Shown one piece after another: positions 16,556 through 27,304 of a stretch of DNA of 33,378 nucleotides. A program made the translations under genes and the position numbers. The stretch spans positions 1 through 33,378 of the IMG/VR virus record IMGVR_UViG_3300006738_000035, one strand, 5' to 3'. Every line of letters begins with the position of its first letter. Within the stretch, counting starts at the first letter, position 1. Origin of the DNA: a virus (taxonomy: Duplodnaviria; Caudoviricetes). Under the pieces are notes generated by a model. That model saw only the letters and a program-made list of their open reading frames with translations. It ran no database searches and was not told where the DNA came from.

Positions 16556-16579
16556 AGGGAACTTTTAGTTCCCTTTTTT
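16556..16579 (+). terminator. Rho-independent terminator after g23
   Basis: AGGGAACT-ttt-AGTTCCCT stem followed by a T run. Confidence 0.85.
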
Positions 16580-16609
16580 GTTTGATACTATACATGAGGT
16601 TTGTTTCTT

Positions 16610-16617
16610 TATAAATA
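16610..16617 (+). promoter_or_regulatory. Late promoter TATAAATA, 5 nt before the thioredoxin ATG
   Basis: Exact consensus. Confidence 0.75.
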
Positions 16618-16622
16618 GATAT

Positions 16623-16982
16623 ATGAACCCCCTAATTAAAACAACAGATGATAATTTCCACAAAGAAGTTCTTGATTCCGACATTCCTGTTCTGGTAGAT
16701 TTTTGGGCACCTTGGTGTGGTCCGTGTAGAATGCTTATTCCAACATTGCAACGGATATCAGAAGAAAATGCTGGAAAAATAAAGATTGTAAAAATTAATA
16801 TAGACGAGAATCAAGAAACGGTGGCAAAGTTTAAGATTAGAAGTATTCCAACAATGCTAATTTTCAACAAAGGTGAAGTTGAAAAAAGGATAGTTGGTTC
16901 ATTACGTAAACAACAGATTGAGACAATTTTGGAAGAAATTTTCTATAGAATTTCTCAACGGACCATCTATAATGCATTATAG
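16623..16982 (+). CDS. trxA: Thioredoxin
   Basis: VLVDFWAPWCGPC active site and IRSIPT cis-Pro motif. ATG 16623 is preferred because the track's start (16578) sits in the terminator T run. Confidence 0.93.
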   Translation: MNPLIKTTDDNFHKEVLDSDIPVLVDFWAPWCGPCRMLIPTLQRISEENAGKIKIVKINIDENQETVAKFKIRSIPTMLIFNKGEVEKRIVGSLRKQQIETILEEIFYRISQRTIYNAL

Positions 16983-16990
16983 GAGTAAAA

Positions 16991-17302
16991 ATGGCAAAGT
17001 TAGGAAAAAAGTTAACACAGGAACACAAAGATAAGATAAGCAAGGGTTGCATGGGACATGTACAACCAGAAAGTCAGAAAGAAGCTGTAAGAATGGTGCA
17101 GTCTATGACTTGGATAGTAACCACACCACATGGAAAGCAAGTACGAGTAGTCAATCTTTGCGAATACGGAAGGAAACACAACCTCGGTCCAGCATGGCAA
17201 GGCAATTGCGTAAAGCACGGTCATAGCAAGGGTTACTACGTCAAAAGAGTATCAAGAACTAAATCAGACATTAAAAAAGGACGTATACAGGTAAACCCTT
17301 GA
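16991..17302 (+). CDS. NUMOD3-type DNA-binding protein lacking a nuclease domain
   Basis: GKKLTQEHKDKISK and GHVQPESQKEAVR are NUMOD3-like repeats, followed by W.VTTP.G....V.NL.EY.RKHNL as in homing-endonuclease C-terminal domains. Strong AGGAG RBS. Confidence 0.6.
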   Translation: MAKLGKKLTQEHKDKISKGCMGHVQPESQKEAVRMVQSMTWIVTTPHGKQVRVVNLCEYGRKHNLGPAWQGNCVKHGHSKGYYVKRVSRTKSDIKKGRIQVNP

Positions 17303-17326
17303 CTTTATGGTTAAATATGTTATACT
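17299..17326 (+). promoter_or_regulatory. sigma70-type promoter overlapping the start of ORF 17307
   Basis: TTGACT (17299-304), 16-nt spacer, TG-n-TATACT (-10 at 17321-26). Confidence 0.65.
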
Positions 17327-17831
17327 CTCATTATTATTATGGACAATACCGCTTTATGCAGAAATAAAAAACGAGGGGGTCGTAGTTCAATTGGAGAGAG
17401 CCCCTGGTTGTCGACCAGGAAGTTGTGGGTTCGAGTCCCATCGACCCCGAGGAAGTATTGTAATAAATGGATTGTCTTGGCATGATAGCAATATTGGATT
17501 CAATGAAAAGAATTACGGTTTAGGATTAGAAAAAGATTTAAATAAAAAAGTTTTTATATATGGTGGTTTTTTTAAAGATAGTTTTAATGCAACAGCAAAA
17601 TATATAGCAACAGGTTATAGGATTTTATCAAAAGGAGATATTAGTTTTAACGGAATCGTAGGAATAACACATAAAAATATAAATTGGAATGAAGATAGGG
17701 TGTTGCCGTATATACTTCCAAGTGTTTCGTTTTATAATTTTAATCTTGTTGTATTACCAGAAGGTGGATATAAAGACTATAAATGGCCTACAACATTATT
17801 TCTTCAATATAAACTAAATATTAATAATTAA
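17307..17831 (+). CDS. Secreted outer-membrane beta-barrel protein, PagP-like, with a tRNA nested in frame
   Basis: Signal peptide MVKYVILSLLLWTIPLYA/E. The mature region SWH.....NEKNYGLG......GGFFKDSF....Y..GY resembles the PagP-like H...NE.N.G.G...F.DS pattern, with amphipathic strands ending LFLQYKLN. There is no in-frame ATG after the tRNA. Confidence 0.6.
   Translation: MVKYVILSLLLWTIPLYAEIKNEGVVVQLERAPGCRPGSCGFESHRPRGSIVINGLSWHDSNIGFNEKNYGLGLEKDLNKKVFIYGGFFKDSFNATAKYIATGYRILSKGDISFNGIVGITHKNINWNEDRVLPYILPSVSFYNFNLVVLPEGGYKDYKWPTTLFLQYKLNINN
17376..17449 (+). tRNA. tRNA-Asp (GUC), no encoded CCA
   Basis: Acceptor GGGGTCG/CGACCCC, D arm GTTC/GAGC with TGG, anticodon stem CCTGG/CCAGG with loop TT-GTC-GA, T arm GTGGG-TTCGAGT-CCCAT, discriminator G. 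Confidence 0.9.
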
Positions 17832-18481
17832 TGAAAAAACTAGAAAAAATTCAAAAAATGATTGAAACAATCAGGAATTATGGTTCTGCCATTGAAGAAG
17901 AAGTATTATTAACAATGCAAATTGTTCCAAGAGAAAAATTTGTAAATGAAAATCCGTTTGGTAATCATCCCGTAGCAATAGGTTATGGACAAACTATTTC
18001 GCAACCTTTTATCGTGGCATATATGACACATAAATTAAATTTAAAACCAAATCATAAAGTATTAGAAATAGGAACTGGGTCAGGATATCAAACTGCTATC
18101 TTGTCAATATTATGTGAATCTGTTTATACGGTAGAAAGACTTAAAGAATTATCTGTTAAAGCACAAAAGATACTTGAATCTTTGGAATATAATAATATAC
18201 AATTTGCGATTGAAGATGGTCATGATGGTTGGGAAGAACATGCACCTTATGATAGAATCATGGTAACTGCAACAGCAAAAGGCGTACCTATGAATTTATT
18301 AAGACAACTTAAAGTAAATGGTAAAATGATACTTCCAATTGAAATTCCTAACGGTAAGGAACAATTGATTATGGTAACCAAGAAAGATTCTGATTGTTTA
18401 TATGAACAAGAAGACTTAATACTTGTGCGTTTTGTGCCTTTGGTACATGGAACTTCTTTAAAATATTTACAAAAAGAATAG
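17831..18481 (+). CDS. pcm: Protein-L-isoaspartate(D-aspartate) O-methyltransferase
   Basis: VPRE.FV, IGYGQTISQP, VLEIGTGSGYQTA, DG..GW.EHAPYDRI.VTA, QLK.NGKM.LP and VRFVPL, i.e. the PIMT signature motifs. Confidence 0.93.
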   Translation: MKKLEKIQKMIETIRNYGSAIEEEVLLTMQIVPREKFVNENPFGNHPVAIGYGQTISQPFIVAYMTHKLNLKPNHKVLEIGTGSGYQTAILSILCESVYTVERLKELSVKAQKILESLEYNNIQFAIEDGHDGWEEHAPYDRIMVTATAKGVPMNLLRQLKVNGKMILPIEIPNGKEQLIMVTKKDSDCLYEQEDLILVRFVPLVHGTSLKYLQKE

Positions 18482-18485
18482 TTGG

Positions 18486-18502
18486 TTGGTACGTTTCTTG
18501 CA
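18486..18502 (+). promoter_or_regulatory. Putative sigma54 (-24/-12) promoter
   Basis: TTGGTACGTTTCTTGCA versus consensus YTGGCACG-N4-TTGCW: GG-N10-GC spacing is exact, with one mismatch. Confidence 0.6.
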
Positions 18503-18534
18503 TCATTATATGATAGATTAAAGAGATTGAATCT

Positions 18535-18542
18535 TATAAATA
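18535..18542 (+). promoter_or_regulatory. Late promoter TATAAATA upstream of the porin-like gene
   Basis: Exact consensus. Confidence 0.65.
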
Positions 18543-18642
18543 TAGATAATGTACGAGGAGTTTATAATAAAATAGACACAGATGTTTCTATATCTATAGG
18601 AACAATTTTCGCAAACAAAAAAAGAAAACTAGGAGAACAAAG

Positions 18643-19272
18643 ATGATAAAAAATATTTTCCTTGTTCTATTTGCATCTTTACTGCTTACAGTAGGTTCGA
18701 TTGCAGACGGAACGGCAAATAATGAATTTGAAAAGGTAGAAAATAATGTCATAGTTAATTTTGGTGACTTGACAGTAGGACATAGGTCATATGTTGATGA
18801 TGATGAAGCTCAACTTATATTAGGTTATAACGTATGGGATTCATTACAAGTTCTATACAAGAATGTAACTGGAGTTGGCGAAGACCAACACAAATTCAGA
18901 CTTACACATAATACTTTTCAAGTAGGTAATTTTTATGCAAACGCTGTTGTTGAATACATAATGAAAACAGATGACGGTGATGACGTTGTAAGAGTTAGAC
19001 CAGAAGTAGGTGTAGCATTTCCTATAACTGATAAACTTTCAGCTGGTTATTCATTCTCACCACATTGGGATGTTGACCAAGATGAAGATAGTTGGCTATG
19101 GGAACATAATCACTATAGACACGTTGCTGGTGTTGATTATCAAATCAATGACCAATTCACTTTAGGTGTTTTCGCTGAGATTCACCGAGATGCAGAAAAT
19201 AAACTTCAAGAACAGTTCTTAGGAACTGAATTGAGATTCAATTTTCCTGCATTAGCCATTTTTCATAAGTAA
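18643..19272 (+). CDS. Outer-membrane beta-barrel (porin-like) protein
   Basis: Signal peptide MIKNIFLVLFASLLLTVGSIA/D, alternating amphipathic strands (RVRPEVGVAF, AGVDYQINDQFTLG, LGTELRFNF) and an AGGAG RBS. Confidence 0.7.
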   Translation: MIKNIFLVLFASLLLTVGSIADGTANNEFEKVENNVIVNFGDLTVGHRSYVDDDEAQLILGYNVWDSLQVLYKNVTGVGEDQHKFRLTHNTFQVGNFYANAVVEYIMKTDDGDDVVRVRPEVGVAFPITDKLSAGYSFSPHWDVDQDEDSWLWEHNHYRHVAGVDYQINDQFTLGVFAEIHRDAENKLQEQFLGTELRFNFPALAIFHK

Positions 19273-19284
19273 AGATGGAGATTT

Positions 19285-19315
19285 AAAGGGGGGTTGCAAA
19301 ACAACCCCTTTTTTT
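19285..19315 (+). terminator. Rho-independent terminator
   Basis: GGGGTTG-caaaa-CAACCCC followed by T7. Confidence 0.85.
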
Positions 19316-19318
19316 CGC

Positions 19319-19357
19319 TTGACAAACCAAAAAAAATGTTATATACTATTATAAATA
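19319..19357 (+). promoter_or_regulatory. Tandem sigma70 promoter and late promoter
   Basis: TTGACA (19319-24)-17 nt-TATACT (19342-47), then TATAAATA (19350-57). Confidence 0.8.
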
Positions 19358-19365
19358 CTAATAAT

Positions 19366-19461
19366 AGGCAAGAGTGGTTTAGATTCGAGTTAACGTTCAT
19401 TAACTCACGGAGAAAATCAAGAGATTGATACTATAAAAATCTAAACATTCCACTCATGCCT
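19366..19461 (+). ncRNA. Putative structured ncRNA (long closing stem plus three-way junction)
   Basis: Closing helices AGGCA/TGCCT, GAGTG/CACTC and GTTTAGATT/AATCTAAAC; inner hairpins GAGTTAA/TTAACTC and ATCAA-GAGA-TTGAT. It has its own promoters and no meaningful ORF. Confidence 0.65.
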
Positions 19462-19470
19462 TATCTTCTT

Positions 19471-19478
19471 TATAAATA
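19471..19478 (+). promoter_or_regulatory. Late promoter TATAAATA, 5 nt before the g3 ATG
   Basis: Exact consensus; no SD is present. Confidence 0.75.
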
Positions 19479-19483
19479 TTAAT

Positions 19484-20086
19484 ATGGCAACTGTAACAAA
19501 TACTTTATCAAGACAACCCACTAAATTAGATTATGCTGCTCCTACGCAGTTTAAATTTAATATCTTTAATCTACCTAAAGTAGAATATTTTATAATCACT
19601 GCCAATGTACCAGGTATAAGTCTTACTGCTATAGACCATGCCACTCCATTTAAAACGACACCTATTTTGGGTGACGGATTAACATATGATAATCTGGATA
19701 TATCTTTTATTGTAGATGAAAACTATGAAAACTATCTTGAACTTCACAATTGGTTGGTCGGGATTGGTTTTCCACAAAAAAGAGAACAGTTCAAAGATTA
19801 TAGAGACACAGAATCAGGCAGATTTCCTGGTGCAAAAACAAGACACACAAGCAAAGATATTGGAGATACAAAACTCGGAGCTGCAACTCCAGATAAAAGT
19901 TTATATAGTGATGCAACAATGACACTTCTTTCTTCTAAACATAACCCCGTTGTCGAAGTTAGGTTTAGAGATGTCTTTCCATTGACAATGGCGGCATTAG
20001 AATATACTCAAGCGGATACTGATGTAACATATTTAACTATGACAGCAAGTTTCGCTTATTCTCATTACGAAGTTATAACTCTATAA
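19484..20086 (+). CDS. g3: Tail completion/tube terminator protein gp3
   Basis: PTQFKF....LPKVEYF...ANVPGISL, FIVDENYENYLE.HNW and F.DVFP..L motifs; position before uvsY. Confidence 0.85.
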   Translation: MATVTNTLSRQPTKLDYAAPTQFKFNIFNLPKVEYFIITANVPGISLTAIDHATPFKTTPILGDGLTYDNLDISFIVDENYENYLELHNWLVGIGFPQKREQFKDYRDTESGRFPGAKTRHTSKDIGDTKLGAATPDKSLYSDATMTLLSSKHNPVVEVRFRDVFPLTMAALEYTQADTDVTYLTMTASFAYSHYEVITL

Positions 20087-27227: not shown

Positions 27228-27304
27228 GCGGGTATAGTATAACTGGTAAGTACACTATTCGTCCAGAATAGAGGCATGGGTTCGAATCCCATTCACCCGC
27301 TCCA
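27228..27304 (+). tRNA. tRNA-Gly (UCC), atypical, CCA encoded
   Basis: GCGGGT/ACCCGC acceptor with U73-CCA (Gly identity), anticodon stem CTATT/AATAG with loop CG-TCC-AG, T arm ATGGG-TTCGAAT-CCCAT. Confidence 0.8.

Follow-up and report, generated by a model that had tools for sequence, protein, structure and literature searches.

The window, that is, the whole stretch of 33,378 nucleotides analysed here, is a fragment of a T4-like myovirus with the gene order g23, g3, uvsY, uvsW-like, gp55 and g47/g46, and the record is ∼18% complete. The nearest cultured relatives of this phage are the SAR11/OM43 phages Melnitz and Mosig (76–77% in g23, at most 50% in g3). A variable island separates g23 from g3 (window 16578–19272; 618–2846 in L004 and 713–2741 in L006). 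It holds a thioredoxin, a PagP-like gene and a protein-L-isoaspartate methyltransferase, and relatives add other methyltransferase-like and small genes. The PagP-like ORF (17307–17831, phrog_3600) contains a tRNA-Asp(GTC) gene in its 5′ part (17376–17449); probably either the real start of the ORF lies later or the tRNA was inserted, and the stretch that holds it is missing from L004 and L006. A tRNA-Gly(TCC) gene lies between g46 and hsp20 (27228–27304). The last ORF before g3 had been labelled porin-like in a preliminary description of the locus, a label not borne out by Pfam or PHROG, neither of which gave a match for 18643–19272. The region between this ORF and g3 is the subject of the present analysis, and its features are as follows.

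18643..19272, + strand: upstream gene of 209 aa (ORF, context); another gene takes its place in L003 and L004, where the RNA is kept
19285–19313, U-run to 19315, + strand: terminator-like hairpin with a U-run, at the end of the upstream gene; −18.1 kcal/mol, z −3.9
19319..19347, + strand: sigma70-type promoter TTGACA-17-TATACT; early start predicted near 19354
19350..19357, + strand: T4-type late promoter box TATAAATA; start predicted near 19363
19366..19461, + strand: structured RNA, long form (outer stem, bulge, P1 and junction core)
19366–19376 with 19451–19461, + strand: outer stem of the long form, from the fold
19377–19385 with 19438–19446, + strand: P1, from the fold
19387..19406, + strand: P2 hairpin; family form of 8 positions and a 4-nt loop
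19407..19415, + strand: J2/3 junction strand ACGNAGAAA (N free), invariant in the four variants found by g3 synteny
19416..19429, + strand: P3 hairpin of 5 bp, capped by a GAGA loop; covariation in 4 of 5 pairs, 99% of cells paired
19430..19437, + strand: J3/1 strand ACUA and a short clade-specific insertion, from sequence comparison
19447–19450, + strand: 4-nt 3′ bulge of the long form, from the fold
19462..19471, + strand: U-rich tail, in which the RNA probably ends or is processed (predicted from sequence)
19471..19478, + strand: late promoter box TATAAATA for g3, with 5 nt between it and the ATG; g3 mRNA probably leaderless
19484..20086, + strand: g3, tail tube/completion gene (context); phrog_45, matches annotated tail completion

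All features listed in the preliminary description were located in the sequence. The hairpin at 19285–19315 was not among the output of a simple terminator scan; hairpins resembling it are present in L006, L007 and the L334 group. The sigma70-type promoter, described as near-perfect, matches the consensus at 11 of 12 positions and is joint best among 44 sites between 16000 and 23000. Late-box 8-mers occur 10 times in the window against 5.9 expected, which makes the motif alone weak evidence. The box upstream of the RNA is retained in the T4-like carriers read, and both copies of TATAAATA are retained in element-bearing relatives whose sequence extends far enough. The copy at 19471–19478 agrees with the earlier statement that g3 has a late promoter of its own. 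A late box stands 5–6 nt before the g3 start codon in the window (19471–19486) and at many related g3 loci, from which it is likely that g3 mRNA is leaderless across this phage group. Pyrimidine-rich tails follow the element in other T4-like carriers, too.

The 96-nt segment at 19366–19461 begins 8 nt past the late box and is predicted to fold at −29.2 kcal/mol (z −6.39; 0 of 200 shuffles equally stable), with agreement between the MFE and centroid structures. The fold has 5+6+8 = 19 terminal pairs, which enclose a 7-bp hairpin, the unpaired ACGGAGAAA, and a second hairpin of 5 bp capped by a GAGA loop; this corresponds to the ∼100-nt structured segment previously described, with its paired ends in three helices and its two hairpins. 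The segment had also been called GC-richer, which is true against its flanks (35% versus 9–13%) and not against the whole window (32%). The minus strand of the element also folds (z −5.9), so that folding alone cannot assign the strand.

A search with g3 gave 18 loci, 14 of which had upstream sequence. The element is present at 6 of these 14 (79–100% identity; four variants including that of the window) and not at the other 8 (55–56%). Across the four variants, ACGNAGAAAAUCAAGAGAUUGAUACU is unchanged except at N, P1 shows compensatory changes, and P2 differs in length. No new carriers were added by a wider g3 search, in which the best 80 of 438 matches were considered. The family was then defined by the pattern ACGNAGAAA-N5-GRRA-N5-ACTA with the P3 stem freed, scanned over 33 of 64 parts of the viral collection. 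This relaxed pattern gave 119 viral loci, and all five P3 positions are paired in 27 of them, where the base composition of the remaining pattern matches would lead one to expect 0.8. Five of the 27 belong to the clade of the window and 22 are new; L348, with four of five pairs, is also a member. If the unscanned parts are alike, we infer that the whole viral collection would hold ∼50 family records. Patterns built on the terminal stem and the 3′ end gave 102 and 37 loci, and among the loci listed only the clade of the window is real; the group of L030, L082 and their kin was rejected, being located within a DNA polymerase gene.

Covariation in relatives, which the preliminary description had named as a check on the structure, is present in an alignment of 21 distinct cores, from which near-duplicates and two long-P2 forms were omitted and which is gapless apart from one 3-nt insertion. 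Changes on both sides are seen in 21 of the 23 pairs of the three-helix structure, in a count that treats relatives as independent and represents ∼4–5 lineages rather than 21. The covariation score is 0.648, compared with 0.246 for shuffled alignments (0/500) and at most 0.2 with slid partners, and RNAalifold predicted the same fold from the alignment unprompted. For the long form, six T4-like sequences show double changes in 9 of 31 pairs, with 97.8% of cells paired. With a model of the family, each of 24 viral records gave a single match, and the only bacterial genome in the set gave no match. The long-P2 forms, absent from the alignment behind the model, are recovered as well (56–57 bits), and members score 56–110 bits while the other pattern matches tested reach at most 21 bits. 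L348 hardly folds by itself (z −0.15). In our judgement the element is very probably a real structured RNA.

Database comparisons place it outside the families described in Rfam, as had been supposed. Rfam returned only the two tRNAs for the whole window. For 19200–19600 at E ≤ 10 there were eight weak matches (best E 0.54), none of them over the element on the + strand, and 20 member loci searched against Rfam 15 at E ≤ 1 gave no match. An exact-core search of metagenomes gave nine matches, eight from the clade of the window and one due to chance (L131), and a search of GTDB genomes with the window-type core, which does not have the commoner P3, gave one chance match (L256). The family pattern was absent from 301 genomes of the phylum of G029, which is probably the wrong phylum, and BLAST of the RNA against cultured phages and plasmids gave no match. 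The element is a covarying structured RNA that is conserved across phages and lies outside Rfam.

The ∼65-nt core is a three-way junction composed of P1 (5–10 bp), P2 (8 positions and a 4-nt loop), the J2/3 strand, P3 (5 bp), and the J3/1 strand ACUA. It is this core that forms the conserved unit, and the long outer stem, part of the ∼100-nt unit first described, is an addition in T4-like carriers. The search pattern fixed the junction strands, the length of P3, and the GRRA loop, so that invariance of these features beyond the first four variants is overstated and variants are missed. Within this frame the P3 loop is GAGA in 20 of 21 cores and GGGA in one, and the free J2/3 position, the third base of GGA, is A in 13, U in 4, G in 3, and C in 1 (n = 21). 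Features not imposed by the pattern are the length of P2, its A-U pairs, the A-U pair near the tip of P3, and P1. The pair A45-U52, next to the closing pair of P3, is present in 21/21 cores, though the pattern left it free. Two A-U pairs of P2, at steps 6–7 from the junction, are found in 20 and 19 of the 21 cores, and they keep their distance from the junction in L006 and L007, where the tip of P2 is extended. We infer that the P3 loop makes a tertiary contact with P2 and that the junction is ordered. Sequence conservation is concentrated in loops and junctions, with no long pairing seed.

Genomic context was obtained for 24 of the 26 loci submitted, and carriers comprise T4-like myoviruses, ∼36-kb phages with an unrelated capsid, and HTVC010P-type podoviruses, with one copy per record. 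In the eight T4-like loci the RNA is upstream of g3 and is preceded by the so-called porin or another gene. The g3 proteins of these eight carriers (63–100% identity) form one side of a branch (support 98/91) versus 28 non-carriers. Ten loci belong to the ∼36-kb phages, whose capsid is at most 34% identical to that of cultured phages, and here the RNA is upstream of an HNH endonuclease (8 loci) or a glycosyltransferase (2 loci). The remaining six are podoviruses, in which the genes on both sides lie on the opposite strand and the RNA adjoins an exonuclease-like gene; the capsid of one of them, G021, is 81% identical to that of pelagiphage Baldr. Side by side with the HNH gene, the RNA occupies two genomic sites in ∼36-kb phages (L378:2489–3106 versus L382, L387, L388, L389, L411, L412, L413 and L415), and in G022 the pair lies away from the capsid gene, at a site unlike that of its relatives, which suggests that RNA and HNH gene move as a unit. 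A protein of ∼950 aa, in which two glycosyltransferase regions are combined with a methyltransferase-like one, adjoins the capsid genes of ∼36-kb phages (L379:3209–6100; genes after the RNA or HNH gene in L382, L383, L384 and L388).

The three kinds of carrier differ in capsid, terminase and replication genes. Tail-fibre-like proteins are common to them (53–76% identity), and lysis-type small genes (40–65%), a phosphoesterase and a few others are common to the two small kinds; the shared tail-fibre-like and lysis-type genes make one host lineage likely. The likeness of tail-fibre-like proteins across kinds in L386, L404, L388, L379, L385 and L418 suggests an exchange of modules. There is no small gene that all three kinds share. 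Homologues of the methyltransferase and phosphoesterase, and the members of their clusters, gave no named host organism, and dsrC was found in none of 29 records. The RNA is absent from 10 cultured SAR11/OM43 phages, Baldr included (best E 0.18). Two other RNA-like features were seen near these loci. In L373, L347, L333, L326 and L357, two to three tandem ∼26-nt units resembling H-type pseudoknots are found ∼130–240 nt before the junction motif, with the terminator of the capsid gene on one side and a short basic ORF on the other. The records with these units gave no Rfam match at the gathering threshold, and the units are possibly a second undescribed RNA motif. A sister T4-like group has a glutamine riboswitch (RF01739) and a small ORF upstream of g3 (L194:2401–2458, L227:5080–5137), with similar sequence in L211, L224 and L234, and one pseudoknot-like unit precedes the riboswitch.

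The strand and mode of expression can be approached from promoters, pairing and neighbours. A sigma70-type site ends 28–63 nt before J2/3 in members, and 89–99 nt before it in long-P2 forms. The promoter score, obtained with our own weighting in AT-rich intergenic DNA, is 8.8 at the expected position versus 7.2, 6.6 and 6.9 in antisense, upstream and downstream controls, which members exceed in 20, 21 and 21 of 23 cases; L333 and L259 score no better than a control. The alignment contains 30 G-U cells versus 14 A-C cells. This bias and the polarity of the promoter point to one transcribed strand, the + strand. Of the reading frames, none stays open in more than 13 of the 24 members. The neighbours differ between phages, the podovirus copies are antisense to theirs, and most members have an upstream promoter-like site, which together make a stand-alone RNA likely and lend indirect support to the independent sRNA proposed earlier. 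The same proposal held that the element is not needed as a leader of g3, and this is confirmed by its other neighbours in other phages and by 72 related g3 loci (49–60%; ∼5 with less than 200 nt of upstream sequence) that match neither model of the element. Many g3 loci without the RNA keep the late box directly before the start codon, so g3 does not need the element.

Other data on expression are mixed. In 10 loci a same-strand gene begins ∼17–70 nt past ACUA, an arrangement that also fits a 5′ leader, and most non-T4 members have no clear terminator. Four RNA runs kept as contigs had word shares of 0.12, 0.09, 0 and 0 (trace phage). In two of them, X1 and X2, four short contigs map to the upstream gene and to g3; the element has none, and it is still uncovered at 80% likeness. 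Such contig-level data are uninformative for a ∼100-nt RNA. The reading favoured by the sequence comparisons is a + strand, non-coding, stand-alone RNA, and we think it probable that the element acts as a free RNA.

Several known classes of small RNA invite comparison. T4 RNAC and RNAD are late small RNAs of unknown function (PMC9697503). As far as the available text on them goes, the junction RNA is like them a small non-coding RNA of a T4-like phage with a (here predicted) late promoter; unlike them it also has a sigma70-type promoter, occurs in non-T4 phages, and in the window does not adjoin a tRNA gene, a comparison made by description and not by sequence. Y RNAs (YrlA) are 80–130 nt long, with paired 5′ and 3′ ends interrupted by bulges, a distal structured module, and the motif GNCGAAN0-1G (PMC4201824). 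From the portion of that source consulted, the T4-like long form shares their two-module look, whereas the ∼65-nt forms of the small phages are without the long stem. A Y RNA was rejected, since the GNCGAAN0-1G motif, as given there, and the T-loop motif are each found in 0/24 members and Rfam gave no match. ARAGORN reported nothing at the element. A TROVE/Ro60 gene was found in none of five partial records by profile, and by eye in none of the flanking ORFs of the 24 contexts. A look-alike in rRNA, a one-mismatch copy of J2/3 at position 1427 of E. coli 23S rRNA, is without the GAGA hairpin and ACUA; the best match of model R2 in the E. coli rrnB operon, whose rRNA is not that of the true host, has E 0.4. 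Fremin et al. 2023 (PMC10690425) reported 8,495 unnamed candidate structured virus RNAs from IMG/VR. Judged by the description in the part of that report seen, these candidates have the same source, similar length and covariation, and a part of the junction RNA family may be among them. Literature searches by keyword and with four core strings returned no description of it, the alignments of Fremin et al. lying outside this comparison. The family is apparently undescribed.

What is conserved is a rigid fold together with unpaired bases of the junction and loops; there is no long seed, and no downstream gene is consistent, from which it is most likely that the RNA acts by its shape. We tentatively propose, from what can be read in the sequences, a short stand-alone three-way-junction RNA made from a host-type promoter that would serve as decoy to an RNA-binding protein of the host. 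The sigma70-type promoter would transcribe the + strand, with the late promoter added in T4-like phages, and yield a discrete and stable RNA of ∼65–120 nt shielded by its closing stem. The GAGA-capped P3 could pack on the fixed A-U pairs of P2 in a compact tertiary fold, and the two purine-rich junction strands may form the recognition surface. The partner would be encoded by the host, because no small phage gene travels with the RNA, and would be titrated early in infection. Most plausibly it would be a defence or stress nuclease or toxin, or another RNA-binding regulator of the shared host; a host defence or stress factor is a plausible target. A protein-titrating phage RNA is on record in VpdS, which competes for Hfq (PMC12197685). 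As far as the text available on VpdS describes it, the likeness to it and to CsrB/RsmZ is in the proposed action only, namely a free RNA that occupies a host RNA-binding protein; unlike them the junction RNA has no repeated GGA loops, no evident base-pairing seed, and one rigid junction fold.

A CsrA/RsmA-titrating RNA, suggested in the preliminary description from the one unpaired ANGGA in the window, is scarcely credible and was rejected: ANGGA occurs in 3 of 24 members, at least two GGA in 3 of 24, and the G falls on the free junction position. The main rival to the protein decoy is a small-molecule aptamer, which would be a riboswitch-like sensor before genes and a sponge for a metabolite or immune signal elsewhere; we regard it as unlikely. 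Purine- and c-di-GMP-type aptamers are three-way junctions of fixed dimensions, with conserved unpaired junction bases and a loop-helix clamp. The element, with a junction of fixed dimensions, conserved unpaired bases, one free J2/3 base and a possible loop-helix clamp, has an architecture that suits a small-molecule as well as a protein ligand. It resembles the purine, c-di-GMP-I and glutamine (RF01739) aptamers in size, three-way junction, conserved junction strands and GNRA-type loop, and related phages carry the last of these upstream of g3. However, no Rfam riboswitch matches any of the 20 loci at E ≤ 1, and with the versions of the riboswitch, hammerhead and IHF motifs used here, the purine and c-di-GMP-I cores are found in 0/24 members and the glutamine motif in 1/24, outside the core. 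An expression platform is not evident, and the downstream genes are functionally unrelated, unlike those of known riboswitches, with the six podovirus copies antisense to their neighbours and without a same-strand downstream gene. A variant of this idea, an RNA-only counter-defence aptamer passed among unrelated phages of one uncultured host, which would sponge a nucleotide immune or stress signal or jam an effector from the first minutes, seems distinctly unlikely; phage sponges, in the part of the literature surveyed, are proteins.

RNA leaders that modify RNA polymerase are known from put-like antitermination, and a 5′ leader acting in cis, whether by stabilising the transcript, by modifying RNA polymerase or through control over how the following gene is translated, would account for the position of the RNA at the very beginning of the predicted transcript in three phage kinds, and for HNH-linked start codons ∼8–30 nt past P1, often with no evident Shine-Dalgarno sequence. 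Such a role is quite unlikely, given that transcripts reading through in podoviruses would be antisense to the genes on either side, that the late box of g3 is its own and also present in non-carriers, and that a long covarying stem and U-rich tail close the RNA in T4-like phages. The compact fold and conserved core, and the company of an HNH gene in eight loci at two genomic sites, would fit a small self-cleaving ribozyme of a new type, or a processing signal, spread by HNH homing endonucleases, an improbable reading in view of 0/24 hammerhead cores, no Rfam ribozyme match, and 16 of 24 contexts without an adjoining HNH gene. A virion structural or packaging RNA, one of the roles suggested earlier, would agree with the late box of T4-like carriers and with capsid or tail genes next to the RNA in the T4-like and ∼36-kb phages. 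Yet the carriers have three unrelated capsid and terminase modules, the podovirus copy adjoins an exonuclease-like gene, and close cultured relatives build virions without the RNA, which leaves this role very improbable. There is a slender chance that the element works as DNA, either as a protein-binding palindrome (e.g. a double IHF box) or as an origin hairpin. The P3 palindrome of the window does fit the IHF consensus and the minus strand folds equally well, but the fit is limited to 4 of 24 members because P3 covaries, the G-U bias and promoter polarity speak for RNA, and the replication genes of the carriers differ.

Small phage RNAs of unknown function are already known, as in the case of T4 RNAC and RNAD in the source text available, and the notable part here is the crossing of three phage kinds. 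That an RNA outside Rfam should be single-copy in three phage kinds unrelated to one another, and missing from the 10 cultured relatives examined, points to a target specific to the host. A protein decoy, if true, would add to the few phage RNAs known to act through their structure; ligand binding or catalysis, if true, would make this a new RNA class. At ∼65 nt, the core is of a size suited to direct probing, cleavage and pull-down work. The junction RNA provides a handle on the defence and regulatory biology of an uncultured lineage and is a possible marker of host range.
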